A stretch of DNA of 64,000 nt from contig CAWAAL010000024.1 of assembly GCA_963779975.1 (NCBI GenBank), positions 57,153 to 121,152 of the forward strand, written 5' to 3'. How positions within the stretch are numbered: position 1 is the stretch's first letter; each line of letters starts with the position of its first letter. The notes under the pieces are model-generated. The model saw only the letters and a program-made list of their open reading frames with translations. It was not told the origin of the DNA and ran no database searches. Source of the stretch: an uncultured Planctomycetia bacterium. GTDB taxonomy: Bacteria; Planctomycetota; Planctomycetia; Pirellulales; Thermoguttaceae. Made by a program: the position numbers and the translations under genes. This document shows positions 973 to 60,241 of the stretch, piece by piece.

Positions 973-1240
973 ATGTCTGCCACAAGTGATCAGTTTGGCC
1001 AAGAGGCGAAAGAAGTGACTGAAAATCTTCAGGAAATGGGACGGACCGTCAGGGACACCGCCCAGGCGAAGCTCGAACAAGCGGGTGAACAGGCCGCGGA
1101 ATACTACGAGCAGGGGCGCAGACAAACTCCATGGCGTCGCGTGCGTCTGCGAGCAGTACATCCGCGAGCGGCCGCTGAGGTCGGTCTTGATGGCGGCCGG
1201 CATCGGCTGGCTGCTCGGTCGCTTTTGGAAACGCGGCTAG
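973..1240 (+). CDS. DUF883 (ElaB/YqjD-like) membrane-anchored stress protein, 1 frameshift in this sequence
   Basis: The frame from ATG 973 (...AAEYYEQGR) plus the +1 frame from 1121 (DKLHGVACVCEQYIRERPLRSVLMAAGIGWLLGRFWKRG, stop 1238-1240) gives the typical DUF883 C-terminal anchor. The shift follows a G4 run at 1113-1116. Track ORF 973..2793 is a read-through chimera. Confidence 0.55.
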
Positions 1241-1254
1241 CGGGAGATGGACCC

Positions 1255-2793
1255 ATGGCGCCCTTGGACCAGTTCGTCAAGTCGGTGTGGATGCTGGGGG
1301 CGACCGCCGTGGTCGTTGCCGCCCTTTACCTCGCCAAGGGCGTGCTCGTGCCCTTGACGCTCGCCGTGCTGCTGAGCTTCCTGCTCAGCCCGGTGTGTGA
1401 TTGGCTCGAGCGGCGCAGGCTGGGCCGGATCCCGGCGGTATTGCTTACGGCCATCCTGGGCTTCGCGGTGCTGGGCTTCGCGGCATGGACGACGGTGGGG
1501 CAAATGACCGCGCTGGCCCCCAAGATGCCCGAGTACCAAGACAACCTGCAAGCGAAACTCCATGCGGTGAACGACTACTTCGTGGCCGCGTTGAACAAGG
1601 CGACAAGAACCGCCGAGGACGTTGGCCAGGATCTTCCGCAAACCCAGCAGGCCAAGACGGCACTGGGAACCGACGAATGGCCCTATTCGGTCCGCGTGCT
1701 TTCCCCGCCCGCGAGTCCCCTGCAACTCCTGGGTCAGACCTTCGGTACGCTGATCGAGGTCTTGGGCCTGACCGGCATCGTCGTCATACTCGTGATTTTC
1801 TTCCTGGTGCGGCGCGAGGACTTGCGCGATCGCTTCATCCGGCTGGTGGGAAAAGGTCACGCGACCGTGACCACGCAGATGCTGGCGGACGCCGCCGCGC
1901 GGGTCAGCCGATACCTCTCGATGCTGTTTCTGATCAATGCCACTTTCGGCATCGTGGTCGGCATCGGGCTTTACCTGATCGGCATACCCAACGCCATCCT
2001 GTGGGGGATCCTGGCTGCAACCTTGAGGTTCGTTCCCTACATCGGCCCCTGGATTGCCGCGGCGCCGCCGATTTGCCTGGCAATGGCCATCTCGACGGGC
2101 TGGTTGGCGCCCATCCTCGCGCTTGCGCTGTTTGCGGGCCTGGAACTCTTCTGCGGGAATGTCCTGGAGCCATGGCTGTATGGCAAGGGCACCGGCGTGT
2201 CGGCGGTGGCGGTTCTGTTGGCGGCCGTCTTTTGGACATGGTTGTGGGGAATCGTCGGACTGCTGCTGGCGACCCCGTTGACCGTGTGCCTGTTGGTGAT
2301 TGGCAAGCACGTTCCCCAACTCTCCTTCTTGCACGTTCTGCTGGGGAACGAGCCGGTGTTCGAGCCCACGCGGCAAGTCTATCAGCGGCTTCTGGCCGGT
2401 GACCAGGAAGAAGCCGCCGAATTGGTCGACGATGATCTCGAGAACAGGCCGCTGGTGGAGGTCTACGACACGCTGCTCGTGCCGGCGCTGGCTTTGGCCG
2501 AAACCGACTGGCATCACGGCGAACTGGACGAGGGCCGGCACGCGTTCATCTTGCGGAGCCTGAAGGAGATGATTCAGGAAAGGGACGAGGGCCAGCCGGA
2601 AGTGAAAGCGAAAGAGGGTATCGAGGACGGGCCGGAAAAGGTGTCGGCCGGGTGGCGGCCGTACATCCTCTGCCTGCCCGCCCGCGACGAGGCGGATGAG
2701 ATCGCCGGAATGATGTTGGCGCAATTATTGGCGACGGGCGAGCGCCTCGTACAGTCGGTCTCGTTTACGGCCGCGGCCGGCGCAGTTGCTTGA
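1255..2793 (+). CDS. AI-2E family transporter (PerM/UPF0118) with cytosolic C-terminal extension
   Basis: In-frame ATG 1255 (MAPLDQFVKS...). Multi-pass membrane core typical of UPF0118, followed by a soluble tail (ILCLPARDEADEIAGMMLAQLL...). Confidence 0.7.
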   Translation: MAPLDQFVKSVWMLGATAVVVAALYLAKGVLVPLTLAVLLSFLLSPVCDWLERRRLGRIPAVLLTAILGFAVLGFAAWTTVGQMTALAPKMPEYQDNLQAKLHAVNDYFVAALNKATRTAEDVGQDLPQTQQAKTALGTDEWPYSVRVLSPPASPLQLLGQTFGTLIEVLGLTGIVVILVIFFLVRREDLRDRFIRLVGKGHATVTTQMLADAAARVSRYLSMLFLINATFGIVVGIGLYLIGIPNAILWGILAATLRFVPYIGPWIAAAPPICLAMAISTGWLAPILALALFAGLELFCGNVLEPWLYGKGTGVSAVAVLLAAVFWTWLWGIVGLLLATPLTVCLLVIGKHVPQLSFLHVLLGNEPVFEPTRQVYQRLLAGDQEEAAELVDDDLENRPLVEVYDTLLVPALALAETDWHHGELDEGRHAFILRSLKEMIQERDEGQPEVKAKEGIEDGPEKVSAGWRPYILCLPARDEADEIAGMMLAQLLATGERLVQSVSFTAAAGAVA

Positions 2794-3112
2794 TCTTGTC
2801 GAGAAGCGCACACCCGACGTGGTGTGCGTTTCCGCCACGCCGCCCGCCGCCGTGATGCATGCCCGCCACCTCTGCAGGCTCGTTCGCAGTCGATTTCCGG
2901 AAGTACGCGTGGTCGTGGGATTGTGGAACGCGCAAGGCGATCTGAGCAAGGCGCAGGCGCGCATCGGCGCGGGCGCCGCAACGCATGTCGTTGCGACCTT
3001 GGCGGAGGCGCAAGAACAGGTCCGCCTGCTGGTCCAGCCGCGCTTGCCGCCGTCCGAAAAAGAGGTACCGCCGGATAGCGGTCCCCTGGTCATGGAGGCG
3101 GCGCACGCGTGA
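2786..3112 (+). CDS. continuation of the AI-2E C-terminal Rossmann-like (B12-binding-fold-like) domain in another frame
   Basis: LLDLVEKRTPDVVCVSATPPAAVMHARHLCRLVRSRFPEVRVVVGLW continues the preceding tail. The junction near 2775-2785 implies a 1-nt frameshift. No DxHxxG motif is seen. Confidence 0.4.
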   Translation: MLDLVEKRTPDVVCVSATPPAAVMHARHLCRLVRSRFPEVRVVVGLWNAQGDLSKAQARIGAGAATHVVATLAEAQEQVRLLVQPRLPPSEKEVPPDSGPLVMEAAHA

Positions 3113-3164
3113 AACTACTCATCAAATCACCAGGTTCGATTGTTCTTTTGAAAGGAGAGCTGAA

Positions 3165-3329
3165 ATGCTCGGTACTATTTTGATCGTGTTGTTGGTTCTG
3201 ATGCTGCTGGGGTCGCTGGGTACGTTGCCCACGTGGTCGCACAGCAGAAGCTGGGGCTATGGCCCGAGCGGCGGGATGGGAGTGGTTGTGGTGATTCTGA
3301 TCGTCCTGCTGCTCGTGAGAGGCTTTTGA
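3165..3329 (+). CDS. DUF3309 family small membrane protein
   Basis: ATG 3165 follows RBS AAAGGAGAG. MLGTILIVLLVLMLLGSLGTLPTWSHSRSWGYGPSGG... fits the DUF3309 pattern. Confidence 0.6.
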   Translation: MLGTILIVLLVLMLLGSLGTLPTWSHSRSWGYGPSGGMGVVVVILIVLLLVRGF

Positions 3330-3340
3330 TCATTGCTGGG

Positions 3341-3912
3341 ATGCAGATCCTGCGGCTGCTGAAGCAAACGTCGTTGGAGTGGTATCAGTCCAGGGCTTTT
3401 GAGCTCGGCGCCGCCCTGGCCTTTTACGCCATTTTCTCGATCGCGCCGGTGATTGTGCTGGCCTTCACTGCCGCCAGCCTGGTTCTCGGTACAGAGGCGG
3501 CGCAGGGCCGGTTGACCGAGCAGATCGAAAGCACCGTCGGTCACACCGTGGCCGTTGCCATCCAGGCCACCGCGCAATACACGTACCAGAGCGGCTCGAG
3601 CGTCCCGGCGACGGTTCTCAGCATCGTCTTTTTCGGGCTTGGCGCCATCGGGCTTTTCAGCCAACTGCAAATCGCCCTGAACGCGATCTGGGAGGTCGAG
3701 CCCAAATCGGGGCGGGGACTGCGAGGAAACCTGCACGATCGGTTGGGATCATTCCTGGCCGTCCTGGGAATCAGCGCGCTCTTGCTGGCCGACCTGCTAG
3801 TCACGGCACTCCTCTCCGCGCTCGGCCGGGTGGTGCCCTCCTCGCCCGCGCCCCAAGGCTTCCCGTTCTGGTGGGCCGTCATGTTCACCGTCTCCTGGGC
3901 ATTCCTCACGCT
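3341..3912 (+). pseudogene. YihY/BrkB family membrane protein, 3'-truncated
   Basis: ATG 3341 (MQILRLLKQTSLEWYQSRAFELGAALAFYAIFSIAPV...). Family-like sequence stops near 3912, where a CCCCTA-tatat-TAGGGG hairpin and lower-GC unrelated sequence begin. The ORF runs on to 4093 without similarity. Confidence 0.5.
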
Positions 3913-4113
3913 GGATCACCACCCCTATATATTAGGGGGCGGAACCGGTAAACTTACAGTCGGACGATGTATTTCAGACTGTATGCTGCGCGTCCTACCG
4001 ATCGCCAGATCGCCCTTGGGCGATTGCCGGCGAACACGTCAAGTCGCGCCTTGCCCGAGTTGTCTACAAAGGCAATCTGGCCATAAGCGATAAGGCGGGG
4101 CCGCGTAGGAACG

Positions 4114-7100
4114 ATGCTTGCGAGCGCTGATTTGTCGCGCAGGAGGAGCAAGGTGTCGAATAGAAAGGTGAAAACCACCGTCAAGCGAGCGCCCACATCG
4201 CTAGAAAACGTAGAACCGGACATGCCAGCCGTCCCCCCGGTGGAGGAGAGGCCGGCTGTAGAGGCAGATTTGGGCGTGCATCCGAAGGCGGGCTTTCCCA
4301 TCGTCGGCATCGGTGCGTCGGCCGGCGGTTTGGCGGCGTTTGAGGCTTTCTTTTCCGGGATGCCTGCCGAGACCGATCCGGGCATGGCCTTTGTCCTGGT
4401 GCAGCATCTGGCCCCGGACCATAAAAGCATCCTCTCCGACCTGGTCAAACGATATACGCGCATGCAGGTCTTCGAGGTCGAGGACGGAATGCCGGTCAGG
4501 CCCAACTGTGCCTACATTATTCCACCCAATCGGGACATGGCCTTTCTGGACGGTACGCTCCAGTTGCTGGAGCCGGCTCGCGCCGCGCGGCCATCGCCTG
4601 CCGATTGACTTCTTCTTCCGCTCTCTGGCCCAGGACCAACACGAGCGGGCGATCTGCATCGTGCTCTCGGGCACCGGTAGCGATGGTACGCAGGGAGTGC
4701 GGGCGGTCAAGGGCGAGGGCGGCATGGTGATGGTACAGAACCCCGAATCCACCGAGTACGACGGTATGCCGCGCAGCGCCATCGCCACTGGACTGGTGGA
4801 CTACGTGCTGCCGCCCGCCGAGATGCCGCCCCAGATCATCGCCTACGTCGCCCATGCATTCGGCAAAAAACCCCGGCCGGTCTCTCCCCCGGCTCCCAAG
4901 GCCGGAGACGCGATGAAGAAGGTCTTTATCCTGTTGCGAGTCCAGACCGGCCACGATTTTTCGCAGTACAAACAAACCACGATCAACCGCCGCGTCGAGC
5001 GGCGCATGGCCGTCCACCAGATCGAACGGTTGAATGAGTACGTTCGTCACTTGCAGCAGACCCCGGCCGAAGTGGAGGCCCTCTTTCGCGATCTCTTGAT
5101 CGGCGTCACCAATTTCTTTCGCGACCCGGAGGCGTTCGCGGCGCTGAAAGGAACAGGTCATCCCGCGACTTTGTGCCGACAAGGACGCGGGGGCAGCGAT
5201 CCGCGTCTGGGTGCCTGGTTGCTCCACCGGCGAGGAAGCATTTTCCATCGCCATCCTGATCCAGGAGCAGATGGAACTGCTGAAGCAGAGTTGCAAAGTG
5301 CAGGTGTTCGCCACGGATATTGATCGCCAGGCCATCGAACAGGCCCGCACCGGTATCTATCCCGTCAGCATTGCCGCCGACATTTCACCGGAACGACTAT
5401 CGCGGTTTTTCGCCCAGGAGCCGGACGGCACGGCCTATCGCGTCAACAAAAGCCTCCGCGACCTATTGGTCTTTTCCGAGCAGGACGTGATCAAAGACCC
5501 GCCGTTTTCCAAACTGGACATGATCAGTTGCCGCAACCTGTTGATCTATATGGGCGGGGATCTCCAGAAGAAGCTCATGCCCCTGTTCCATTACGCACTA
5601 AAGCCGGGCGGCACGCTCTTCCTGGGAACCTCCGAGACCGTGGGCGAGTTCGCGGACCTGTTTTCCACGCTGGACCGCAAGTCGAAGCTGTATCAACGCA
5701 AAGAGAACGGTTCTGGCGCACAACGCCCGGCCATGGGAAAGTATCTTCCGCCCCTGACGGAAGGTGAAACCGCTTTACGGCCCTCCGCGAAGGCTCCCGG
5801 CGAAAGCACGTTCCGACTGCGCGAGTTGACCGAACGGGCGTTGCTGCAACAGTACGCCCCGGTCGCTGCGCTGATCAACCAACGCGGCGACATCCTGTAC
5901 CTCCACGGCCGTACCGGCTTGTACCTGGAACCAGCCCCAGGCGAACCCGGCATGAATATCCTGAAGATGGCCCGCGAAGGGTTGCGGCAAGAACTGACGA
6001 CTGCCTTGCACAAGGCTGTGGCCAGCAGAGATTTGGTGCGGCATCCGGGACTGCGGGTCAAAACCAACGGCGACTTCACCTTGGTCGATCTAACGATCCG
6101 GCCGGTAGCGGCAGGCCCCAGACGCCGCCACTGATTCGGCCCTGTTTCTGGTCATCTTTGAGGAATCGCCGCCGACAGTCCAGCAGCGGCCGGAAAAGGC
6201 CATAGCCGTGGATTCGGTGCAAGGCTCGGACTCCGGCGCCATGGATGTCGATGCGCGGATCGCGGCGCTCAAGCAGGAACTGCGGGCCAAGGAAGAATAC
6301 CTCCAGACCACGAACGAGGAATTGGAGACATCCAACGAAGAACTGAAATCCTCCAACGAGGAGATGCAGTCGGTCAACGAAGAGTTGCAATCCACGAACG
6401 AGGAACTGGAAACCTCCAAGGAGGAACTGCAATCGGTCAACGAGGAACTGGCCACGGTCAACGCCGAGTTGCAACAGAAGGTGCTCGATCTCTCGCGGGC
6501 CAACAACGACATGAACAATCTGCTGGCTGGTTCGGGCATTGGTACAATTTTCGTGGACTATCAACTGCACATCCAGCGATTTACTCCCGCTGTCACCCAG
6601 GTCATCAACCTGATCCTGACCGACGTGGGGCGGCCCGTGGGGCACATCGTATCCAACTTGGCTGGTTATGACCGCCTGGTGGAGGACGTGAAGGCCGTCC
6701 TGGACACCCTGGTTCCCAAGGAGGTTGAAGTGCAAACCAAGGCGGGTGCGTGGTATTTGCTGCGAATCCGGCCCTATCGTACCCTGGAGAACGTGATCGA
6801 AGGCGCGGTGATTACCTTCACGGAGATTACCGAAATGAGAAATGCCCAGGCAGCCCTGCGGGAATCCGAGGCCCTGCGCCGCCTGGCCGTCGTGGTGCGC
6901 GATGCGCAAGATGCCATCCTGATGCAAGACTTGGAGGGACGCATCCTGGCATGGAACCCGAGTGCGGAGGCAATGTACGGCTGGAGCGAAGCCGAGGCGC
7001 TGACGATGAATATCCGCGACCTGATCCCGGAAGGGCAGCGGGAGGGCACGTCCGCCATGGTGAAACAGATTGCTCGTGGTGGGATCTTGGAGCCCTATCA

Positions 7101-7272
7101 CACGCAACGGATCGCCAAGGACGGCCGGATCGTGGAGGTGCGGCTGTCTGCCACTGCCTTGATGAACGAAATCGGAAAAGTGTATGCCATCGCGACCACG
7201 GAGCGGGAGATACGCGGGCAAGATGAGGATAGGGCCTCTATGGTCACGAGAAGGAAGCCTGGCCATGACTAA
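4114..7272 (+). CDS. CheB methylesterase - CheR methyltransferase - coiled coil - PAS sensory protein, 3 frameshifts in this sequence
   Basis: Track ORFs 4114..4608, 4313..5323, 5211..6134 and 6208..7272 read as one protein. Motifs: GIGASAGGLAAFEAFF, LPIDFFFRSLA, VWVPGCSTGEEAFSIAILI, NEEL-repeat coiled coil, two PAS. Frame changes lie near 4575-4590, 5149-5152 and 6116-6121. Confidence 0.8.
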
Positions 7273-9974: not shown

Positions 9975-10248
9975 GGTCGGCAAGCCGCCAGGGCAAAAGC
10001 CGCCAGGGCAAAAGTCGCCACAGACGCCGATCCCCGACACTTGGGAACTACTGTAGAGACCAAGGAGATTCCTCGTGGTCGGGGCAAATTGCATGCAGGA
10101 CATCCTGTTCCACCGCATCGTGACCATTAGGGCGTTTGGGTGGCGAGTCCTCTCTTGGGCTGTTTTCGAGAGCCAGGGCGACACATTCCTCTCCTTGGCT
10201 CCAAGGAGACGCGTTCTTTGAAGCGACGACTTCGCGAGAATAACTCTC

Positions 10249-10396
10249 TTGCCTTTGCCTCATAGCGGCATACAATGATGGCAGAGTCGCGATACACTCG
10301 ATCGCGACTCTGCAACAAGAATGTCGGATGACTAGATAGAGAGCAACCCGGCCGTACGGGGAGGCTCGTTAGTGAGTAAGCCGACGTGGTCGAATA
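10249..10396 (+). ncRNA. GTCGGATGACTAG-box RNA module, copy 1 (3'-truncated)
   Basis: -35 TTGCCT 10249-10254, 16 nt, -10 TACAAT 10271-10276. 13-bp P1 hairpin 10281-10313; box 10323-10335. The terminator 5' arm breaks at 10396 into an antisense gene relic. Confidence 0.7.
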
Positions 10397-10819
10397 GTCG
10401 TACAGCTCGCGCAGTTGCGTTTCCGGCAGTTCGACGGGCGCCAAATACGGGAAGAGCATCATGTGCTCCCAAGGCATCCAGACCAGTGGAAACGACGGAC
10501 GGATTGGCGCACGAGTGAAGGCGAACGGGTTGACGCCGGACAAGGCAATCGTGGACTCGGCCGTGAGTATGAGTTCCGTGTAGGGTTGGCTGATCTCGAA
10601 TCGACTGGCCGAATTGCCAAAGACATCTTCGAATTCCATGATCGGGACGGCGGGAACAATCTGCAAGCGATAGTTCAAGACGCTCTGATGGACGTCATTG
10701 ATCGGCCGCAGGTGGACGCAATGCTTGCTGTGCTGAACGGGCTGATTGTAACCAAACCGGGTCGTGTGCTTGACAGTCAAGCGACGGCTGCCAATCGTGG
10801 ACGGGACGGGCATGGTCAT
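10397..10819 (-). pseudogene. transglutaminase N-terminal-domain (Bact_transglu_N-like) protein, 3'-truncated by module copy 1
   Basis: RLTVKHTTRFGYNQPVQHSKHCVHLRPIND...FEDVFGNSASRFEI fits the family. Similarity ends at ...LRELYDY, after which the ORF translates the module antisense. Confidence 0.6.
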
Positions 10820-11344: not shown

Positions 11345-11530
11345 TAGCCAGTCGGCAAGGGATCGCTAAAATATAGATGTAACCGCTCCAAAGAGCTTGA
11401 ATGCTCGGATTACGATGAATGTTTGTCGGATGACTAGATGAAATACAACCCGGCCTTGCCGGGGGGTTCGTTGAAGAGTAAGCCGACGTGGCCGAATACC
11501 TGCGGGTGTTCCGCCACGTCGGCTTTTTTG
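11345..11530 (+). ncRNA. GTCGGATGACTAG-box RNA module, copy 2
   Basis: Divergent promoter region (TAGCCA, 16 nt, TAAAAT 11367-11372). Box 11425-11437; full terminator; T6 11524-11529. 75 nt to ATG 11605. Confidence 0.7.
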
Positions 11531-11604
11531 TTTCCGTGGTGCAAGACGGTCGGAATCCATTCACGGAAGGCTACTTCTCGGCCCAAGCATTGGAGGATAG
11601 GATC

Positions 11605-12694: not shown

Positions 12695-12880
12695 TTGCCT
12701 TCGCCGCGTAGCGGCGTATGATAGTTGTATTGGGAGAATCGCGGCGCACTTGATCGCGACCTTTCAACGCAATTGTCGGATGACTAGATAGAGAGCAACC
12801 TGGATGTGCCAGGGGGCTCGTTGAAGAGTAAGCCGACGTGGTCGAATGCCTTCGGGTGTTCCGCCACGTCGGCTTTTTTC
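12695..12880 (+). ncRNA. GTCGGATGACTAG-box RNA module, copy 3
   Basis: TTGCCT 12695-12700, 16 nt, TATGAT 12717-12722. Box 12775-12787; P2 variant CCTGG/CCAGG; T6 12874-12879. 74 nt to ATG 12954. Confidence 0.75.
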
Positions 12881-12953
12881 GTTTTCGGTGTTGCGGGAAC
12901 AGTCGCAACGACCGAGCATGGTCCTTGGACAATCTCAAAAAGGGAGAGTTATC

Positions 12954-26743: not shown

Positions 26744-29150
26744 ATGACGACAAAAGCCCTTTCCCCCGAACTGCTCCAGAAGATGGACGCTTATTGGCGC
26801 GCCGCGAACTATCTCTCGGTCGGCCAGATTTACCTTTATGACAATCCCCTCCTGAAGCGGCCGCTTGCGCTTGCCGACGTGAAGCACATGCTGCTGGGAC
26901 ACTGGGGCACGACCCCCGGACAGAACTTCATCTACGCACACCTGAACCGGGTCATCAAGAAATACGACCTCGACATGATTTATGTCTCCGGTCCGGGGCA
27001 CGGCGGCCCGGCCGTCGTGGCCAACACGTACCTCGAAGGCACGTACAGCGAGGTCTATCCCGACATCAGCCAGGACGAGGCCGGGCTGCGGAAGCTCTTT
27101 CTGCAGTTCTCGTTTCCCGGAGGAATTCCCAGCCACGCATCGCCCGAGTGCCCGGGCTCGATCCACGAGGGCGGCGAGTTGGGCTATTCGCTCAGCCATT
27201 CGTTCGGAGCGGTGTTCGACAATCCCGGTCTCATCGTCGCCTGCGTCGTCGGCGACGGCGAGGCGGAGACGGGACCGCTGGCCACGGCGTGGCATTCGAA
27301 CAAGTTCCTCGATCCGGCCACCGATGGCGCGGTGCTGCCGATCTTGCATCTCAACGGCTACAAGATTTCCAACCCGACCATCCTGGCCCGCATCGAGCAC
27401 GAGGAATTGGAGCAGTTGCTCCGCGGCTACGGGTGGACGCCCTACTTCGTCGAGGGGCACGAGCCCGAACTGATGCACGAGGCGATGGCCGCGACGCTCG
27501 ACGCGGCGGTGGAGCAGATCCGACAAGTCCAGGACAACGCCCGCCGACCATCGGTAGATGGCGCCCCCTACAGCCTGACGCGTCCGCGCTGGCCGATGAT
27601 CGTGCTGAACTCGCCCAAGGGCTGGACGGGGCCGAAGATGATCGATGGATTGCAAGTGGAAGGCACCTTCCGGGCGCACCAGGTGCCGCTCTCCGATCCG
27701 GCGACGCATCCGGAACACCTCAAGCTGCTGGAAGACTGGCTGAGGAGCTACCGGCCGGAGGAACTCTTCGACGATTCAGGCCGCCTGAAAGCGGAGTTGG
27801 CCGAACTGGCGCCCCAAGGCCAGCGGCGCATGGGCGCCAATCCCCACGCCAACGGCGGCCTGCTGCTCCGCGACCTGCGGATGCCGGACTTCCGCGACTA
27901 CGCGGAAGCCGTACCCTCGCCGGGCGCGCGCGGCATCGGCGAACGTCCACGTGCTCGGGCCTTTCCTCCGCGACGTGGCGAAGCTCAACGCCGAGCCGAC
28001 CATGGGTACACGGTGCCCGAACTTTCGCGTCTTCGGCCCTGACGAGACGCTCTCCAACGGCCTGGAGGCCCTTTTCGAAGTGACGCAGCGCCAATGGGAC
28101 GCCGCAACCGTGCCCAACGACGAATTCCTCGCGCCCGCGGGGCGGGTGATGGAAATGCTCAGCGAACATCAATGCGAGGGCTGGCTCGAAGGCTACCTGC
28201 TCACCGGGCGGCATGGACTCTTCAACTGCTACGAGGCCTTCATCCACATCGTCGATTCGATGTTCAACCAGCACGCCAAGTGGCTGAAGGTCACGTCGCG
28301 CTTGCCGTGGCGGCGGAAGATCGCCTCGCTGAACTACCTGCTGGCCTCGCACGTCTGGCGCCAGGACCACAACGGTTTCACGCACCAGGACCCCGGTTTC
28401 ATCGATCACGTCCTGAACAAGAAGGCCGAAATCGTCCGCGTTTACCTCCCCCCGGACGCCAACTGCCTGCTCTCCGTGATCGACCACTGCCTCCGCAGCC
28501 GGCATTACGTGAACGTCGTGGTCGCGGGCAAACACCCCGCGCCGCAGTGGCTGACGATGGACGCCGCCGTCAAGCACTGCACCGAGGGCATCGGCATCTG
28601 GCCGTGGGCGAGCAACGACCAGGGCGTCGCCCCCGACGTGGTCATGGCCTGCTGCGGCGACGTGCCCACGCTGGAGACGCTCGCCGCCGTCTCGATCCTC
28701 CGCGAGCATCTGCCGGAGTTGAAGATCCGGGTGCTCAACGTCGTCGACCTCATGCGGCTGCAACCGCAAAGCGAACACCCGCACGGGCTGAGCGACATGG
28801 ATTTCGACGAGCTTTTCACCAAGGACAAGCCGGTCATCTTCGCGTTCCATGCCTACCCATGGCTGGTCCACCGGCTGACCTACCGCCGCACCAACCACCG
28901 CAACATCCACGTCCGCGGCTACAAGGAAGAGGGCACCATCACCACGCCCTTCGACATGACGGTGCTGAACGATCTGGACCGCTTCCATCTTGTGATGGAC
29001 GTCATCGACCGCCTGCCGCAGACCGGCGACAAGGGCATCTATCTCAAGCAGCAACTCAAGGACAAGCTCATCGAGCACAAGCAATACATCGAGAAGTACG
29101 GCCAGGACCTGCCGGAAATCCGCAACTGGAAGTGGGACAACCTCAAATGA
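26744..29150 (+). CDS. xfp: phosphoketolase (xylulose-5-P/fructose-6-P), 1 frameshift in this sequence
   Basis: Track ORFs 26744..28042 and 27951..29150 together cover a full ~800-aa Xfp ([62 protein letters not shown]). The shift is near 27941-27946. Confidence 0.9.
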
Positions 29151-32732: not shown

Positions 32733-33512
32733 AAAAGCTCATTGTCTTCGATCTTGATGGCACGCTTGCCGAAAGCAAGGCATCTCTCGACGCCGAGATG
32801 GCCACACTGCTCACCACTCTCCTAGGCATCGTGAAGGTGGCTGTCATTTCCGGTGGCAACTGGCCGCAATTCGAAAAACAAGTTCTCTCTCAATCTTCCC
32901 CACGACGAACGTCTGAAGAACTTGTCTCTCCTTCCTACCTGTGGAACAAAGTTCTACCAATACGCAGGCGATTGGAAAAAGCTCTATTCCGAAGATTTCA
33001 CCGCAGCGGAGAAAGACAAAATCATCAGCTCTCTCAACAAGGCGATCGGGGCAGCGGGCTGCAAGGTCGAAAAAGTCTGGGGAGAGGTCATTGAAGACCG
33101 GGGAAGCCAGATTACGTTCTCCGCACTAGGCCAGCAGGCTCCGCTCGATGAAAAGAAGAAATGGGACCCTGACTTCGCCAAGCGGAAGAAGATGAAAGCA
33201 CTCCTCGATAAGCTTATCCCCGAGTTTTCCGTGCGATTGGGCGGCGCGACATCCGTTGACGTCACCAAGCCCGGCATCGACAAAGCCTACGGGATTCGAA
33301 AACTCCGCGACACCCTGGGCATTGCAATTCATGACATGATTTATGTCGGGGATGCCTTGTTTCCTGGCGGGAACGACTATCCGGCTGAAGAAGCGGGTGC
33401 GGTTTCGATCCAGGTCCGAGATCCCCACGAGACGAAACGCGTGATTGAAGCGATCATCGCTTGTTTGGATGGCGATGAACCGGCACAACCTCGCAAGGAG
33501 GAGAGTCGATGA
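32729..33512 (+). CDS. HAD-IIB family sugar phosphatase/phosphomannomutase-like, 1 frameshift in this sequence
   Basis: MKKLIVFDLDGTLAESK...ISGGNWPQFEKQVLS continues in another frame (NLPHDERLKNLSLLPTCGTKFY...GGATSVDVTKPGIDKAYG...VGDALFPGGNDYP). The shift is near 32890. Confidence 0.7.
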
Positions 33513-34619
33513 ACGGCTTTCAATTGCAGCGGCTCGGGCTGATGATGGAGCCGGAACCGGGCAATCCGCATGGAGGCTGAAGGCGTCCTGAATCCGGCGG
33601 CCGTTCGCGGCCCTGACGGCAAGCTTTACCTGTTTCCACGGCTCGTCGCGCGAGGCAATTATTCGCGCATCGGCATTGCCCGCGTAAAATTCAACGAAGC
33701 CGGCGATCCGTGTGGAGTCCAACGGCTCGGCATCGCACTGGAGCCGGAAACCGATTATGAGCGTCGGCCCGACGGCAGCGGTGGCTGCGAGGATCCGCGT
33801 GTCACGTTCGTCGAACCGCTTCAGTGCTACATGATGACTTACGCGGCGCTCTCGCCCATCGGCCCACGGATTGCCGTGGCCGTATCGGAGGATCTGTTTC
33901 ACTGGAAGCGACTGGGGCTCGCGACCTTTGCTCCGTATGACGGCATCGATTTCGTTCACGTGGACAACAAGGATGCCAGCCTCTTCCCCGTCGCCATCCC
34001 CAATCACGCCGGGAAAATGCAGATGGCCATGCTCCATCGTCCCCTTTTCCCCGGCACTCGTCCCGAGGAAACCGCCTGCCAGGCCGCGTCGCGCGAGGTG
34101 GATCTCGATCATGAGAGCATCTGGATTTCCTACTGTCCGATGGCCTTGGAGGGTCCCGAACCGTCACACCTCGGCCTGTTTAATTCGCATCACCGGCTGG
34201 CGACTCCGGTGTCGCCCTGGGAGCGGCTCAAGATCGGTGCGGGCACTCCGCCCGTCATGACCCGGCACGGCTGGCTGATCCTTTACCACGGCGTGAGCGA
34301 AATGGCGGAGGCAAGTAACGACGGACATCATTTGTGCTACTCGGCCGGGGTGATGGTGCTCTCGAAGGAACATCCGCGCGTGATCCGCTATCGTTCGGCG
34401 GAGCCTGTGTTGACGCCGGAATTGCCTCAAGAGCGCTGCGGGACCATTGCCAACGTCGTGTTCCCCACCGGCATCGACCGCCGCGACGACATCGGCTTGC
34501 CGGACCGCTTCGACGTTTACTACGGGATGGCCGACAACCGGATTGGCGCGGCACGCCTGGATGTGCCGGATTTCCTGCCGCCGGGACGAGTCGTCGATCC
34601 GCCGGAAGCAAAGGTGTAG
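33509..34619 (+). CDS. GH130-like glycosidase/phosphorylase family protein, 1 frameshift in this sequence
   Basis: ATG 33509 (ATGA overlap). MNGFQLQRLGLMMEPEPGNPH, then a shift at 33569-33573 into EAEGVLNPAAVRGPDGKLYLFPR...CEDPRV...GWLILYHGV...VYYGMADNRIG. Confidence 0.65.
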
Positions 34620-41576: not shown

Positions 41577-43228
41577 ATGAATACGAGATCGAAAACAGTC
41601 GTGACCTTCGTGCTGGTTGTCGTGTTGTCAGCGGGCCTGGCCATGGCGGGCCGGGGCGGAGGCGGCGGTGGAGGCGGGGGCGGCCGTGGCGGCGGCGGGG
41701 GCGGCGGTGGATTCCACAGTGGAGGCGGCGGTGGCGGATACCAAGGTGGAGGCGGCGGATACCACGCGCCTTCTTTCAGCACCCCGCGCAGAGTTTTAGC
41801 GAGCCGCGCCAGAGTTTTAGCGAGCCGCGCCAGAGTTTCAGTGCGCCGCATCAGAATTTCAATGCCCCGCGTCAGACTTTCAACACGGCGCGTCCCGGCG
41901 AGACGTCGGCGTCGCGGCCATCGTTGCCGCAGAATGCCGGGGCCAACCGCGCGGCCTTTACGCCAAGCAACCGGTCTGGAACCGGCGAGCGGCCAGGAAT
42001 TGCCAACATGCCCAATTGGGACAACCGCCTGAACACCGGGAATCGCGCGAACGCCGGGAATCGCGCGAACATCGACAATCGTGCGAATATTGGGAACCGG
42101 GCCTACGTCGCAAACCGTCCGAACCTCGGTAACAACTTCAACATCAACCGGACGAACAACTTCGTCCGACCGACACATGGCGATTGGAACCGCGGCGGTT
42201 GGTATCACGGGGATTGGCACGGCAACTGGAATAACTCTTGGAATTATGGGCCGGTGGGCTGGTGGGGCACCGGCTACTGGGCCGGTGACGCTCTTTCCGC
42301 GACCCCCTGGTCCTGGGGATATTGGCCGTACTACAACCCCTACTACGGCGGGTCGTTCGTCGCCGGCAGTGCCTTCGATTACTCGCAGCCGATCGTGGTG
42401 GCCCAGGCGGCCGTCGCGCCGGCCGGCGCTCCAGCGGGTCTGACCGCCGAGCAACAGGCAACTCCCTTGCTCGATGCGGGGCGCAATGCCTTCATGCAAG
42501 GCGACTATGCAACCGCGCTGGCCCAGGTGGACCAGGCCATTGCGCAAGTGCCCAACGACACCGTGCTCCACGAGTTCCGCGGCCTGGCGCTGTTCGCACT
42601 GGGGCGTTACAAGGAAGCGGCTGCCACCGACTATGCCGTGCTGTCTGCCGGTCCTGGCTGGGATTGGACGACGCTCAGCGGCCTCTATCCGGACGTGGAC
42701 GTCTACACGACACAACTCCGCGCCCTGGAGCAGTACGCAAACTCGCACCCGGCCGACTCGGAGGCGAGATTCCTGCTGGCCGAAAATTACCTGACTTGCG
42801 GCCACACCGCTGCTGCCGCCGCACAGTTCCAGGAAGTCGTACAACTGGATCCCAAGGACCAGTTGTCCGCCCAACTACTCAAGAGCATTTCCGGAGCGGA
42901 TACTGCCACGCCCGATACTGCCCAACCGGCGCCAACGAAGCCGGCCGATGCGGCGGGCCTCGTGGGCAACTGGACCGCGACGCGCGCCGACAGTGCCACG
43001 ATCAAACTGGCCCTGGCCGGCGATGGAAAGTTCACCTGGGCCCTGGATCAGAACGGCAAGCCGCAACAGTTCAGCGGCACGTATACCGTTGCCGACAACC
43101 TCCTGGTCCTTAAGCAGGGCAACAATCCCATGATGGTGGGCCAGGTCGCCCCGCTTGCCAGCAACCGTTTCAATTTCAAGCTGGCGGGAGACAACCCCAG
43201 CGACCCCGGCCTGACCTTCGTGCGATAA
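41577..43228 (+). CDS. secreted Gly-rich / Asn-rich repeat / TPR-like protein, 1 frameshift in this sequence
   Basis: Signal peptide plus poly-Gly in frame 41577. The rest lies in the frame of track ORF 41549..43228 (PRQSFSE repeats, GNRANx repeats, WxGxW aromatics, TPR-like LDAGRNAFMQGDYATALAQVDQAI). The shift is near 41789. Confidence 0.6.
41784..41887 (+). repeat. 21-bp tandem repeat x5 (PRQSFSE units); first unit is 20 nt
   Basis: Units at 41784 (20 nt, lacks one C), 41804, 41825, 41846 and 41867. Confidence 0.85.
42039..42110 (+). repeat. 18-bp tandem repeat x4 (GNRANx units)
   Basis: GGGAATCGCGCGAACGCC / GGGAATCGCGCGAACATC / GACAATCGTGCGAATATT / GGGAACCGGGCCTACGTC. Confidence 0.8.
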
Positions 43229-43339
43229 GGATCGGCGGGCTCGAGATTCGGACCACCCGACCCCATCTTGACCTGCGCGGCCGCGGGTGCGACAATGCTG
43301 TCGTACTTGGTCCTAAGGCCATTGGTGAGTCGGACGGCC

Positions 43340-43918: not shown

Positions 43919-45002
43919 ATGCGGAGCGCTATGCGCAGGTCCGAAGACTGTTCCTGGCCGCGTGCGAGCTTGCCGAAAGTGAGATGGGCGCGTTTCTCGA
44001 TCACGCCTGCGCGGGCGATCCCGAGCTTCGCGAGGAACTGGAATCCCTGCTGAAGCAACCTCGCGCGACGACCATCATCGGCACGTCAAGCGAAGACGCC
44101 GCCCGCGGCAAGGTCCTTTCCCCCCTCGCCCATCTTCCGCAGTGAACTTGTTCCCGCCGATATCCCCCTTGAGGCGGCACGGGCTGGGAATCCGTGGCGT
44201 TTTTCGCCGGGTGAAATCATTGCCGCCCAGCGCTACAAGATTCTGGGGCCGCTGGGCGGAGGCGGCGCCGGCGAGGTCTACAAGGCGCACGATCAGATCA
44301 TGGATCAAGACGTGGCGTTGAAGTTTCTCGCCCCCGGGCAGAGCGGCGGCGACCCGACGTGCAGCCGTTTCGTGAGCGAAGTCGCGATGGCCCGTGAAGT
44401 TGCCCATCCGAACGTGGTCAGGGTCTACGACGTCGGCCAACTTGCCGACGGCGAGGTGTTTCTGTCGATGGAGTTCATCGACGGCGAAGACCTTGCGTCG
44501 TTGCTCCGCCGCGCCGGCAGGCTCTCGCCTGAAAAGACCGTGCAAATCGCCCGGGAACTGTGCGCCGGGCTGGGCGGCCGCGCACGATCATGGCGTGTTG
44601 CACCGGGACCTGAAGCCGTCCAATATCTTGATCGACGGAGACGGTCACGTGCATATCGCCGATTTCGGCATTGCGGCTTTCGTTCCCACTGCCGCAGGCG
44701 AGATTCCTTTGGCCGGGACACCCGCTTTCATGGCCCCCGGGTTGTTTCACCACAAGCAACCCTCGAAACAAAGCGACCTCTATGCGCTGGGGATCGTGCT
44801 GTATGAAGTGGCCACGGGAAGGGAGCCCTTCGGCGGCGTGCCGGCCGACGGCCTCCAAGCCGCTGCCGAACTGGTTCCGCCTTCGGTGCTGTGTCCCGAA
44901 ATCGGGCCTGCCCTGGAACGGGCCATCCTGCGGTGCTTGGAAGAAGATCCGGGCCGGCGGCCCGAATCCGCGGAAGCTGTTGCGGCCCTTCTGCCGCGAT
45001 AG
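43915..45002 (+). CDS. Ser/Thr protein kinase with sigma-associated N-terminal domain, 2 frameshifts in this sequence
   Basis: ATG 43915 (ATGA overlap with the sigma stop): MNAERYAQVRRLFLAACELAESEMGAFLDHACAGDPELREELESLL. Kinase motifs GPLGGGGAGEVYKA, VALKFL, HRDLKPSNILID, DFGIA. Shifts lie near 44117-44126 (C6 run) and 44570-44580. Confidence 0.75.
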
Positions 45003-45007
45003 GTTCC

Positions 45008-46862: not shown

Positions 46863-46899
46863 GTTCTTGATCGTTTCTTAACCAATACAGAGGATCGTC

Positions 46900-47571: not shown

Positions 47572-47599
47572 TTTTCTTACCCGAAAGGAAGGTGCCACA

Positions 47600-48138: not shown

Positions 48139-48339
48139 TTGTGCTTCTCTTTCCGTACGGTATAATTGGAGTGTGCTGCGAGGCGGCGGAGAGCTCCGCG
48201 CGACTTGCTGACGCAGTGGATTTGAATTCGTCGGATGACTAGATAAAGAGCAACTCGGCCGGAATGGCCGGGGGGCGCGTTGAAGAGTAAGCCGACGTGG
48301 GCGAATGCCTTTGGGTGTTCGGCTACGTCGGTTTTTTTG
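48139..48339 (+). ncRNA. GTCGGATGACTAG-box RNA module, copy 11 (most divergent)
   Basis: TTGTGC 48139-48144, 16 nt, TATAAT 48161-48166. Box 48230-48242; P2 variant CGGCC-ggaat-GGCCG; T7 48332-48338. 109 nt to ATG 48448. Confidence 0.7.
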
Positions 48340-48349
48340 TTTTCTGCTT

Positions 48350-48421
48350 AGAACGTTCGGAAGAAATTGGTGCGAGTCCCGCGTTTTTCCAGGGCTTCCG
48401 CCCATTTCTTCCGAATGTTCT
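48350..48421 (+). repeat. second hairpin element (IR2), copy B
   Basis: AGAACGTTCGGAAGAAAT ... ATTTCTTCCGAATGTTCT, same position relative to the module U-tract as copy A. Confidence 0.75.
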
Positions 48422-53497: not shown

Positions 53498-54492
53498 TTA
53501 CGACAGTTGCAGGCCCAACTCGAGCCGGCCGGCATTTTCCAGGGCTTTCGCCGCCGCGCATAAATCCTGAATTGCCACGCCGACGGACTTGAACAAGGTG
53601 ATCTCGTCCGCATGTCCTCGGCCCGGCGACCGACCCAGCACAACGTCGCCCAACTCCGTGGCGAAGTGCGACTCCTCGATCAAGCCTTGCCGCAATGGTT
53701 GGAGCAAATCACCTGCTTCTTCCAGCGCTGCTGCGAGGTGATCCACCACGACGTGCGCTCGGCAGACCGTGGCGGGAGGGATCTCGCTCACGTGCGGCTG
53801 GTAGGAACCGATCGCGTTGACGTGGACGCCATGCTTGAGATCGGAGTCTTCGAAGATGGGCTCCGACGAAGTGGTAGCCGTGCAAACGACGTCGGCGTCT
53901 TTCAGAGCTTCAACCGGGCTGGCCGCGCGTTCGACGGGCCGGCCGAGGCGCCGGGTCATTTCGGCCGCAAACCGATCCGCGGCAGACGGGGCCGCGTCAT
54001 AGATGTATGCCCGGTGGATCGTGCGCACGCAACAAACTGCTTCCAGTTGAGTGCGTGCCTGCGCGCGGCGCCAAACACAGCTACCACCGCGGCATCGGGT
54101 CGGGCCAGGAGATCCGTGGCCAGACCGGACGCGGCACCGGTGCGGATGGCGGTGAGGCTCGTACCGTCCATCACCGCCAGATGCGCACCGGTCGTGCCGT
54201 CGGTCAGGATCACCAGTGACTGAATCGTCGGCAGCCCGCACCGCGGGTTATCAGGAAATATCGTGATGGTCTTCAATGAGAACATCCGCAACGCGATGGA
54301 ATGGCAGGGCATGACAAGCGCCACGCCACGCTCGTCCGGCGTTTGCAGACTTGCGCGGGCAGGCAACGTCACCTGCCCGTCGGCTAACTGGGCGAACGCC
54401 TCGCGCATCGCCGCAATCGCGTCGGTCATCGGCAGCGCGCGGCATACGTCGGCAGCGGAAAGATAGAGCCATGGAGCGGTTCTCATCGTCAT
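53498..54492 (-). CDS. ornithine cyclodeaminase/mu-crystallin family protein, 1 frameshift in this sequence
   Basis: MTMRTAPWLYLSAADV...DGTSLTAIRTGAASGLATDLLAR...AVVAVFGA, then a shift near 54070 (a missing G) into AQARTQLEAVCCVRTIHRAYIYD...HVNAIGSY...FKSVGVAIQD. Confidence 0.75.
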
Positions 54493-54880
54493 TTGCAACC
54501 GGTGCCTCCGGGGCGGCAGCAACCAGGTTTCAATGCCTGGGCCGACGGCGTGACGGCAATGCCTCCCTTGGACGTACAACGTAATGCCGAGGGCATCGCG
54601 AGCCCTACGGCGTAAACGGCGTCGATCGTCTCGTCCAACGGAATGAAGTTCGTGTAACCGCCGAGTACGAGATCCGCATTGACAAAGGCAGCGGCGGCGG
54701 CGGCCGCGTTGCGCGTATGGCACGGTATCTCGACCATGCCGTGCAGAAGGTCGCAGACGGTCCCCGAGGTGTCTTGGAACGGGCCATGCAGCCGACGTGG
54801 AACGCGCCCGCCGTGTGGGAGCTGGAGGGGCCGCGCATCACGGGTCCGAGGACATGATTGAGGATACTGACGGCTTTCAT
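54489..54880 (-). pseudogene. L-serine dehydratase relic with large internal deletion
   Basis: N-terminus MKAVSILNHVLGPVMRGPSSSHTAGAFHVG is joined, out of frame, to a C-terminus-like GTVCDLLHGMVEIPCHTRNAAAAAAAFVNADLVLGG...TSKGGIAVT. Total length is 392 nt. ATGA overlap with the OCD start. Confidence 0.5.
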
Positions 54881-59099: not shown

Positions 59100-59162
59100 A
59101 GCAATTGCGCGAGGCCCCTGGCCAGTTCGGTCAGAAGTGGCCCGCTCTCGCTGACGGGGCTC

Positions 59163-59513
59163 ATGGGGCCAACGGGGGCCTCACGGGCCAGAACAATGGC
59201 AACCATGGTGCCGCCGAGCGCCGCTCCGGTTCGGAGGCAGACGCTGCCGCCGGAACCCATGGGAATGGTCGCGCCCGCCGCGGTCGCGGATGGCCAAACC
59301 GTCGATGTCCAGGAGAACGGAAAGGTAATTTCGATCACCGATTCCAAAGAATCGGGCATCACCGTCACGATCACCGAATCGGTGGGCGGGAAGAAGAAAA
59401 TGACCAAGGTGCAGGCCGCCGATTTGCCGGAACTGGCCAGGAAGAACCCCGAGGCACACCACCTCTACGGGAAATACTTCCACCTCCGACCGAAAAGCGG
59501 CAAGCCCAAATAG
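59163..59513 (+). CDS. hypothetical protein
   Basis: ORF only. The C-terminal part is ...VDVQENGKVISITDSKESGITVTITESVGGKKKMTKV... The start is uncertain. Confidence 0.3.
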   Translation: MGPTGASRARTMATMVPPSAAPVRRQTLPPEPMGMVAPAAVADGQTVDVQENGKVISITDSKESGITVTITESVGGKKKMTKVQAADLPELARKNPEAHHLYGKYFHLRPKSGKPK

Positions 59514-59523
59514 CTGCCGAGTG

Positions 59524-59573
59524 GGCTTTAGCCCGGCTTTGTATTACTATTGTAGAGGAGGCGGGCTAAAGCC
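59524..59573 (+). repeat. 12-bp-stem hairpin
   Basis: GGCTTTAGCCCG ... CGGGCTAAAGCC with a 26-nt loop. A T7 run follows at about 59674. Confidence 0.5.
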
Positions 59574-59753
59574 TGCCCTACGGAACCGGAAGATTCGCAA
59601 AAAACCTTGTGACGATTCTCGCTTGGCGGCAACTAGCTATCGAGAGGTCTTTTGGCGGCCGTTCAGCGGGCCTTTTTTTGGCCAGCGGTTCTGCTTGCGT
59701 CCGTGCCGGAAAACTGTTTTTAATTTTTTTAGAAGCAAGATAGGAGAATGAAC

Positions 59754-60241
59754 ATGCGTCGGAATTTGTTTGGTGGCCTTGGCTTGTCGATCTCGGTCTT
59801 CCTAGGTGCGCTCAGCCTGGCTTCGTTGGCCTCGGCCCAGGCAACCACCACCCCCGCGACGCCATCGGCCCATGCACAACTGCTCAAGACACTCAGGCAG
59901 GCCCACCATCTCCTGGTCAATGCCGACCACGACTACGATGGTCATCGGGCCAAGGCCGCCGAAGAGGTCCACAAGGCGATCAAGGAACTGGAAGGTAAGC
60001 ATCACGGCAAGAAGGCCCAGTCGGCCACAACCCCCTCCACCGGCGGCATCGGCCCGCGCAGGCCGGCCAGGGGGGCAAAGGCAAAATGCATGAAGCCCAG
60101 GCAAGCTCGGATGCGCAGTTGCAGCAGGCCCTGCAACTTCTGCAAGGGACCTCGACGCATTTAAGCGGCAAGCACCCCAAGGCGAGCACCAACGTAAGTA
60201 ATGCGATTGCCGAAATCAACACGGCACTTAAGATCAAGTAA
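59754..60241 (+). CDS. secreted two-repeat helical His/Lys-rich protein, 1 frameshift in this sequence
   Basis: RBS AGGAG, then ATG 59754, signal peptide. HAQLLKTLRQAHHLLVNADHDYDGHRAKAAEEVHKAIKELE repeats after a shift in a G6 run (60070-75) as DAQLQQALQLLQGTSTHLSGKHPKASTNVSNAIAEINTALK. Confidence 0.45.

Follow-up and report, generated by a model that had tools for sequence, protein, structure and literature searches.

Thirteen single-base frame breaks in a 64-kb window are probably consensus errors of the deposited assembly

Thirteen frame breaks, spread over 10 otherwise well-preserved genes, were identified in the window, i.e. the whole 64-kb stretch of DNA analysed here. Each of the lesions involves a single base, ten being one-base insertions and three one-base deletions. 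Based on sequence comparisons, we suggest with a probability of about 80% that the 13 breaks are residual single-base consensus errors of the deposited assembly. As far as its origin and sequencing technology can be inferred, the deposited sequence probably derives from a soil or peat bacterium whose genome was either assembled from a metagenome or obtained from long reads with light polishing, and the genes beneath the breaks are probably intact and functional. An earlier, sequence-only reading of this DNA also favoured assembly error, and this preference is retained, in view of the single-base nature of the lesions, the absence of nonsense splits, unrelaxed constraint, random placement and a recurrent CGCAG context. 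That reading spoke of about 14 frameshifts; every site it listed is a real frame break, but the list holds 13, and its coordinates are correct to within a few bases except for the first kinase break and the break of the two-repeat protein, which were misplaced. The affected genes and their breaks are as follows:

973-1239, plus strand: DUF883 gene; break at 1116..1121, frame 1 to frame 2
1255-3112, plus strand: AI-2E transporter with a C-terminal B12-binding-like domain; break at 2780..2785, frame 1 to 2
4114-7272, plus strand: CheB/CheR-PAS gene (CheBR); three breaks
4575..4582, plus strand: CheB/CheR-PAS break 1, within the CheB methylesterase domain, frame 1 to 2
5143..5150, plus strand: CheB/CheR-PAS break 2, within the CheR domain, frame 2 to 3
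6116..6119, plus strand: CheB/CheR-PAS break 3, in the linker upstream of the coiled coil and PAS_10, frame 3 to 1
26744-29150, plus strand: phosphoketolase gene xfp; break at 27941..27942, frame 2 to 3
32729-33512, plus strand: HAD-IIB hydrolase; break at 32872..32886, frame 2 to 3
about 33512-34619, plus strand: GH130 glycoside phosphorylase; break at 33569..33570, frame 2 to 3
41577-43228, plus strand: secreted Gly-rich/TPR protein (Gly/TPR); break at 41786..41791, frame 3 to 2
43916-45002, plus strand: ECF-linked Ser/Thr kinase (STK); two breaks
44141..44143, plus strand: Ser/Thr kinase break a, frame 1 to 2
44575..44576, plus strand: Ser/Thr kinase break b, within the kinase domain, frame 2 to 3
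53498-54493, minus strand: OCD/mu-crystallin family gene; break at 54059..54068
59748-60245, plus strand: secreted two-repeat protein; break at 60053..60061, frame 3 to 2

Each break was accepted on the basis of intact homologues, or of a domain or structure match. Addition or removal of one base yielded a full-length, homologue-like protein at all 13 sites, and the homologues examined were all single-frame at the broken positions. Single uninterrupted Pfam matches (CheB_methylest, CheR, Hydrolase_3, Pkinase, OCD_Mu_crystall and B12-binding) span six junctions, while seven (DUF883, the third of CheBR, xfp, GH130, Gly/TPR, the first of STK and two-repeat) are supported by homologue alignments. 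In the coding direction, the shift is +1 in DUF883, the AI-2E tail, CheB/CheR-PAS (three times), xfp, HAD-IIB, GH130 and the Ser/Thr kinase (twice), and -1 in Gly/TPR, OCD and the two-repeat protein. One break is thus met every 5 kb or so, which corresponds to roughly Q37.

The DUF883 and AI-2E genes were compared with about 25 or more JGI metagenome contigs. In DUF883 the extra base is most plausibly the C at 1119 (GCG[C]AG); seven JGI relatives carry GCG-AGAC at this point and encode single-frame proteins of 86-88 aa. Past the break, frame 1 continues into the AI-2E gene, which creates a spurious 606-aa ORF (973-2793). DNA alignment identified the extra base of the AI-2E gene as C at 2783 (GCG[C]AG). 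Residues 1-617 of this protein are read in one frame in about 25 or more metagenome homologues, and the B12-binding match runs across the junction. Occasional frame breaks in the AI-2E gene were also observed in the short-read contigs of relatives (L110 and L126).

For CheBR, homologues from 8 genomes, all single-frame, were used. Break 1 results from an extra base in GCC[G]GC[T]CGCG, which is not a homopolymer and is absent from eight homologues; CheB_methylest covers positions 1-174 of 174 over this junction. Break 2 is an extra base in CTG[A]AAGG (A2 to A3 or G1 to G2) that lies under a CheR match covering 2-191 of 195, and break 3 is an extra C (C3 to C4). A search of the repaired CheBR protein against the genome collection revealed no close relative among the matches listed, the best of which reached 79% (a Bryobacteraceae MAG).

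The extra A of xfp (GGCG[A]ACG) was located by tblastn and by aligning the DNA with the xfp genes of Nitrobacter and Methylophaga; two plasmid genes and 120 protein homologues are intact and single-frame. The xfp gene of the window also contains two unusual in-frame 18-nt insertions. A megablast search of the window against plasmids returned only distant xfp and ATPase homologues. The extra base of HAD-IIB is of ambiguous placement, being either CAA[G]TTC or A4 to A5 at 32874-32878, and the Hydrolase_3 match bridges the junction. In GH130 it lies outside any homopolymer (CCGC[A]TGG), and its removal restores GNPLEAEG, the same as in the Nitrobacter protein. Both HAD-IIB and GH130 are single-frame on Nitrobacter plasmid 2.

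Orthologues of the Gly/TPR and STK genes were found on three short-read metagenome contigs. The Gly/TPR gene lacks one base in the first of its 21-nt repeat units (GCG[C]CAG to GCGCAG): as the sequence-only reading had observed, this unit is 20 nt long, whereas units 2-3 and those of relatives L086, L087 and L084 measure 21 nt. The relatives have single ORFs of 528-544 aa, and in L084 residues 1-550 lie in a single frame. The copy number of the tandem repeat varies between relatives. The STK orthologue is an intact 361-aa ORF on each of the three short-read contigs. Break a of the kinase is an extra T (CCGCAG[T]GAAC) that generates an in-frame TGA; it is located at 44141-44143, outside the C6 run (44120-44125) to which it had been ascribed. 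In the intact orthologues L086 and L087 this run, which lies 20 nt upstream of the break, has the same sequence. Break b is an extra G (GGGC[G]GCC), over which Pkinase covers positions 1-258 of 263.

In the OCD gene a base is missing directly before a coding-strand GCGCAG, within the GAGxQAR dinucleotide-binding motif. The OCD_Mu_crystall match extends over 6-309 of 314, and the alignment with PDB 6t3e_A is gap-free through the motif. The gene of the two-repeat protein lacks a base at CCCG[G]CGCAG. Its break had been placed in a G6 run at 60070-60075; the actual position is approximately 60053-60057, as frame 2 already matches the homologues from AQAGQ, upstream of that run. More than 100 homologues of this protein are single ORFs of 150-170 aa, and the annotated 136-aa product P0241 is a truncated version of it.

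The role assigned earlier to homopolymers could for the most part not be upheld. The runs G4 (DUF883), C6 (STK break a) and G6 (two-repeat protein), in which several breaks were said to sit, are unchanged or irrelevant in the alignments. According to the homologue alignments, only 1-3 of the 13 breaks fall in runs of at least three bases: C3 to C4 at 6116-6119 is the clear case, and A2 to A3 at 5147-5149 and A4 to A5 at 32874-32878 are possible ones. Most of the indels thus lie outside the runs named, and the signature of homopolymer-prone chemistry is lost as an argument for error. Few homopolymer sites and a 10:3 excess of insertions depart from the textbook nanopore profile, which counts against the error reading.

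A different sequence context recurs at the breaks. CGCAG, whose enrichment was spotted post hoc, lies no more than 7 nt away from 5 of the 13 sites in their first placement (raw p = 3e-5; with family-wise correction across all 5-mers, p = 0.04), and from 6 of 13 after the two-repeat site was re-placed by homologue alignment (about 0.004 from the same null distribution). Moreover, two insertions and one deletion, starting from different inferred originals, all ended in the hexamer GCGCAG, a convergence that looks like a systematic consensus artefact. If so, part of the error would be context-specific, GCGCAG having been written where GCGAG, GCGCCAG or GGCGCAG is probably true. Motif-specific consensus errors have been documented, e.g. 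at Dcm sites (PMC6591954). It is also conceivable, but quite improbable, that a real, insertion-biased mutational process directed to (G/C)CGCAG on the coding strand has just switched off ten genes of a modular stress and regulatory island; error-prone repair at the sites of a strand-specific modifying or nicking enzyme, or end-joining repair, would be possible causes.

Further information on the error class came from the syntenic relative L084 (contig_20891, ENA metagenome assembly). It contains 17 indels of lengths other than multiples of three in 8 genes, at points where the reading frames of the window continue, and many of these indels are single-base insertions outside homopolymers. As L084 is riddled with such indels, a class of single-base, non-homopolymer artefacts does exist in assemblies of this lineage. 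None of the 17 indels lies in a CGCAG context, so that the motif could be peculiar to this genome (e.g. its methylation) or a chance finding.

The sequence-only reading had kept real pseudogenisation as a possibility beside error, and a place for it is justified by the relics nearby. It had described such relics as abundant, which we confirmed for truncated ATPase, MFS and VIT1 pieces and, probably, for BrkB:

3233-4093: BrkB, probably truncated; a probable relic
38021-38308: VIT1-like fragment; a genuine relic
39100-39432: C-terminal fragment of a P-type ATPase; a genuine relic
39433-39717: MFS fragment; a genuine relic

These relics cannot be indel errors, and real decay therefore operates in the window. 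It could be argued that the 13 indels are real and very recent, and that ten genes of a horizontally acquired stress/regulatory island have entered the first stage of decay. Older truncated relics in the same window speak for this, as do the three breaks in CheBR and two in STK, which would be expected of dead genes, the two 18-nt insertions in xfp and the occasional AI-2E breaks in short-read contigs L110 and L126. Nevertheless, we consider this explanation unlikely for several reasons.

Firstly, other kinds of damage are lacking. Neither nonsense mutations nor IS insertions nor internal deletions were found in the 10 genes, and the repaired reading frames of the broken genes contain no stop codons. 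In the mutation spectrum assumed here, nonsense mutations make up roughly 30% of the inactivating point lesions, and with this share the absence of any nonsense mutation among 10-13 lesions has a probability of about 0.01-0.03. Apart from the junction of two old gene fragments, a window-wide GC3 screen revealed no gene interrupted by an in-frame stop, and it revealed no further breaks; codon-usage frame tracking gave a noisy signal.

Secondly, constraint is not relaxed. Changes at conserved columns unique to the window's protein were counted and set against the homologue median: xfp has 1 (median 3), CheBR 5 (median 5), AI-2E 0 (median 1) and DUF883 0 (median 0). The dN/dS of STK is 0.21-0.23 between the window and relatives and 0.20 among the relatives, which carry intact orthologues. 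The absence of an excess of conserved-residue changes and of raised dN/dS, which extends to genes with 2-3 breaks, argues against decay, with the limited power that such tests have against very recent inactivation.

Thirdly, the placement of the hits among genes fits a random distribution by gene length. In simulations, four or more colliding pairs were obtained with P = 0.17 and 10 or fewer genes hit with P = 0.30; multiple hits per gene are no commoner than under random placement, and as a sign of decay they were not significant in this over-dispersion test. The break-free stretch of 21.8 kb (6.1-27.9 kb), the largest gap, had a simulated probability of 0.06, a point against the error reading. 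Finally, decay offers no obvious mutational rationale for the convergence of three events on GCGCAG, and bacterial mutation is usually deletion-biased, contrary to the 10:3 excess of insertions observed here.

A mixed origin was also considered: consensus errors would account for most breaks, and a minority, with the Gly/TPR deletion and the breaks in variable linkers as candidates, would be true strain-level polymorphisms that entered a population consensus. Strains are merged in metagenome consensus sequences, the Gly/TPR deletion sits in a 21-nt tandem repeat of variable copy number, and STK break a and the two-repeat break lie in poorly conserved linkers. However, the breaks of Gly/TPR, STK (a) and the two-repeat protein have the same CGCAG context as those in conserved domains, which argues for one common cause, and we regard the mixed origin as very improbable.

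Whatever the cause, the prediction that automated annotation of this sequence would be fragmented holds true: about 20% of the window's genes are affected, P0241 being an example. If the breaks are errors, about one in five genes in the window, including those encoding phosphoketolase, CheB/CheR-PAS and the ECF-linked kinase, will be wrongly annotated as split or as pseudogenes, which would distort the pseudogene counts of the genome and any metabolic or regulatory conclusions drawn from it, and the repaired protein sequences are preferable to the deposited ones. The finding would then be an ordinary one, mainly an annotation warning, with a GCGCAG-linked part worth knowing for those who polish such assemblies. 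If, on the other hand, the indels are real, the window would have caught its genes very shortly after a simultaneous inactivation, a rarely seen stage, and this inactivation would bear a sequence-specific signature.

Three known phenomena may be compared with the breaks described here. The first is programmed ribosomal frameshifting of the prfB type, which, like transcriptional slippage, could bypass the breaks in vivo. The +1 direction shared by 10 of the 13 shifts and the stop codon located at the shift at one site (CAG TGA A) are reminiscent of prfB. However, none of the orthologues has the shift, all being single-frame at every site, and this lack of conservation effectively refutes recoding. 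Neither a conserved slippery site nor a stimulatory element is present; the sites have no slippery heptamer in common, and A/T runs of 9 or more are lacking. The next 0-frame stop lies anywhere between 0 and over 1600 nt from the shift, and three sites would require a -1 shift. Recoding can thus hardly be credited. No Rfam matches were obtained in the window at gathering thresholds.

The second comprises the frameshift pseudogenes of a decaying genome or island. They share with the window ORFs disrupted relative to intact orthologues and truncated remnants in the vicinity, but the mixed lesions, raised dN/dS, loss of conserved residues and nonsense codons that characterize them are missing here.

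The third, to which the preferred explanation of consensus error corresponds, is the fragmentation of gene calls by long-read consensus indels (PMC9262707, PMC12007338). Classically, long-read errors are biased towards deletions and cluster in homopolymers, whereas 10 of the 13 breaks in the window are insertions, mostly outside runs of at least three bases. In other respects the breaks resemble Nanopore or PacBio CLR consensus errors: they are isolated single-base indels in conserved genes, adjacent ORFs join into one protein of homologue length, the density is about 1 per 5 kb, and they recur at one short sequence context. The related metagenome assembly L084 shows the same defect as the window, in a far denser form.

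Three-frame translation recovered all the frame breaks that the sequence-only reading had listed, at 13 sites in 10 genes. Each lesion is one base in size (13/13) and, in the coding direction, ten sites carry one extra base (+1) and three lack one (-1).

Frame breaks in the window, with direction of the shift
~1119, +1, DUF883 gene
~2783, +1, tail of the AI-2E gene
~4575-4582, 5143-5150 and 6116-6119, +1 each, CheB/CheR-PAS gene
27942, +1 (extra A), phosphoketolase gene (xfp)
32872-32886, +1, HAD-IIB gene
33570, +1, GH130 gene
~41789, -1, Gly/TPR protein gene
44143 and 44576, +1 each, Ser/Thr kinase gene
~54066, minus strand, -1, OCD/mu-crystallin family (OCD) gene
~60056, -1, two-repeat protein gene

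All 13 breaks are real departures from intact genes. Once one base is repaired, six junctions are crossed by single contiguous Pfam matches (CheB_methylest 1-174/174, CheR 2-191/195, Pkinase 1-258/263 and OCD_Mu_crystall 6-309/314; the Hydrolase_3 and B12-binding matches likewise span theirs without interruption), and the other junctions were judged by homologue alignments. In a DNA alignment xfp has one extra A relative to its counterparts on Nitrobacter hamburgensis plasmid 2 and on a plasmid of Methylophaga, and no split phosphoketolase occurs among its 120 protein homologues. HAD-IIB and GH130 each have one extra base with respect to the Nitrobacter cluster, and at each of three places the CheB/CheR-PAS gene has one base more than eight genome-assembly homologues, none of which is interrupted. 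The alignment of the repaired OCD protein with PDB 6t3e_A is free of gaps across the GAGxQARTQL motif, and more than 100 homologues of the two-repeat protein (150-170 aa) cover 99-100% of its repaired form.

The operon of holin-like, DUF883 and AI-2E genes was found again in at least about 25 JGI metagenome contigs, in which DUF883 is an ORF of 86-88 aa and AI-2E with its C-terminal domain forms a single 617-aa frame; at both break sites the window has GCGCAG and the relatives GCG-AG. Because the extra base keeps the original frame of DUF883 stop-free into the AI-2E gene, a spurious 606-aa ORF (973-2793) arises, which an annotator could call a fusion protein. In two other JGI contigs, L110 (~6078-6127) and L126 (~1671-1739), the AI-2E homologue lies in two frames, broken elsewhere than in the window; frame breaks in this family, real or artefactual, are therefore also present in other assemblies.

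The Ser/Thr kinase belongs to a conserved block (window 40545-46570) of genes for a SnoaL/DUF4440 protein, the secreted Gly-rich TPR protein, a planctomycete-type ECF sigma factor, the kinase itself (which has a sigma-associated domain at its N terminus) and, encoded on the other strand, an LRR histidine kinase. This block, which suggests a functional signalling module, recurs in syntenic order in the peat and soil metagenome contigs L085, L086 and L087, which look like short-read assemblies. There the Ser/Thr kinase orthologue is an intact ORF of 361 aa; compared with it, the window has one base too many at two places, a T at 44143 (giving TGA) and a G at 44576. In the Gly/TPR gene the first 21-nt repeat unit is indeed 20 nt long, as had been noticed, through a change of GCGCCAG or GCGTCAG to GCGCAG.

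The sequence-only reading had also placed several indels in homopolymers, and here the homologue alignments contradict it. The indel in DUF883 lies elsewhere than in the G4 run, the C6 run near the first kinase break is identical in the intact orthologues of L086 and L087, and the G6 run of the two-repeat gene is downstream of the shift. In that gene the downstream frame is already right at AQAGQ, which therefore puts the deletion at CCCG[G]CGCAG, ~15 nt upstream of G6. Clear insertions outside homopolymers are GCG[C]AG (twice), CCGC[A]TGG, GCAG[T]GAAC and GGC[T]CGCG; runs of at least three bases are involved only at C3->C4 (6116-6119) and possibly at A2->A3 (5147-5149) and A4->A5 (32874-32878).

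A different context emerged post hoc: CGCAG lies within 7 nt of five sites in their initial placement (raw p = 3e-5; family-wise p = 0.04, by simulation over all 5-mers), and of six once the two-repeat site was re-placed by homologues (~0.004 from the same null distribution), at all six on the coding strand. GCGCAG in the window derives from differing inferred originals, namely GCGAG (two sites), GCGCCAG (one) and GGCGCAG (two). Such convergence on one k-mer would be expected from a biased basecaller or polisher, or from signal disturbance by a modified base; we know of no mutational process that produces it.

Nonsense mutations normally form a sizeable share of natural gene inactivation (the share of 30% used in our reasoning is an assumption). 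No stop codons occur within the repaired frames, and a GC3-based screen of the entire window found no gene cut by an in-frame stop, with the sole exception of 39430, where two old gene fragments join. Constraint was measured as deviations unique to the window's protein at highly conserved alignment columns, which number 1 in xfp (homologue median 3), 5 in the CheB/CheR-PAS protein with its three breaks (median 5, IQR 3-8), 0 in AI-2E (median 1) and 0 in DUF883 (median 0). The Ser/Thr kinase, with two breaks, gives dN/dS of 0.21-0.23 between window and relatives and 0.20 among relatives. These counts and ratios therefore indicate that nothing but indels befell these genes, with limited power against very recent events. 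The multiplicity of hits (three and two in single genes, ten genes hit) is unremarkable (P = 0.17-0.30; 48 genes, length-weighted), and a break-free gap of 21.8 kb is marginal (P = 0.06).

We conclude that the 13 breaks are probably consensus or assembly errors (probability about 0.8), which makes them a matter of data quality with little biological interest. Real, recent pseudogenisation appears unlikely. It draws support from bona fide relics in the window, which no indel error can create and whose abundance the sequence-only reading had rightly noted. These pieces of genes, for the most part clear remnants, are as follows.

Gene fragments in the window
3233-4093, BrkB-family ORF, profile positions 4-172/259 only
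10127-10819, ORF with the transglutaminase N-domain only
38021-38308, VIT1-like N-terminal fragment
39100-39432, C-terminal ~110 aa of a second P-type H+-ATPase
39433-39717, C-terminal part of an MFS transporter, abutting the ATPase fragment

The ATPase and MFS fragments share one frame with a single stop codon between them and, like the VIT1-like fragment, are products of old rearrangement and did not arise from indels. For the BrkB and transglutaminase ORFs, partial Pfam coverage was the sole basis of assessment. Relics left by rearrangement differ in kind from pristine but frameshifted genes. A mixture of error and real pseudogenisation is quite improbable, and recoding at the breaks is hardly credible.

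The window (G+C ~61%) is mosaic in content, with stress, regulatory and carbohydrate genes predominantly on the + strand and Pfam families including BBP7 and Sigma70_ECF. Such families, together with relatives in peat and soil metagenomes, tentatively suggest that the organism lives in soil and is planctomycete-like or acidobacterial. Its xfp gene contains two in-frame 18-nt insertions (27543-27560 and 27995-28016), GCCGACCATCGGTAGATGG and GCCGACCATGGGTACACGG, which are identical at 16/19 positions, differ in codon phase and have no other matches in the window. The first lies in a loop variable among homologues; the second, in a segment without extra residues in any common homologue variant.

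A structured element of ~110 nt also recurs in at least 11 copies, all 11 in + orientation (mean column identity 80%).

Copies of the structured element, + strand
10310-10396 (partial)
11412-11545
12762-12895
17987-18120
22630-22763
30462-30595
38404-38537
40325-40458
46744-46877
47453-47586
48222-48355

In order, it consists of a conserved core (GTCGGATGACTAGA), a stem-loop domain, a long GC-rich hairpin and a U run; the last two resemble an intrinsic terminator. From the end of the element to the start of a + strand gene downstream the distance is roughly 30-110 nt for at least six copies (YflT-like, response regulator, SnoaL, glycosyltransferase and others); in another three, the element touches or overlaps the earliest potential start codon of the following ORF (the 12806 ORF, the surface protein and the sigma factor). 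The core is also present in the relatives' contigs L084, L085, L089, L090, L091, L100, L110 and L117, and no Rfam family matches the element at the gathering threshold. Its appearance suggests one of three roles: shared leader or attenuator, small RNA, or repeat with a terminator that marks off the gene modules of the island. The copy at 40325 has an extra C at ~40375 (TGCCG[C]GGGGG), absent in the other ten, that disrupts the first stem and may be one more insertion like those in the genes, here in non-coding DNA.

The closest syntenic relative, L084 (79% identity in the LRR kinase), is contig_20891 of ENA ERZ25039480, a metagenome assembly with contig_N-style names, and is syntenic with window positions ~40.5-53.5 kb. 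It reads the Gly/TPR protein in a single frame and has 17 indels of lengths other than multiples of three over eight genes, all eight read through in the window. Many of these consist of one base inserted between unlike neighbours, and CGCAG occurs at none of the 17. L084 thus offers a precedent for such breaks within the lineage. L084 is very error-rich: its SnoaL, glycosyltransferase, fatty-acid desaturase, GH130 and other genes each extend over 3-4 frames, and its kinase linker has a duplication-like insertion of 29 nt. In one large long-read soil MAG project a single Medaka polishing round was used to cut indel errors (PMC12313526). Gene calls are known to be fragmented by consensus indels of long-read assemblies, and motif-specific consensus errors occur (PMC9262707, PMC6591954, PMC12007338).
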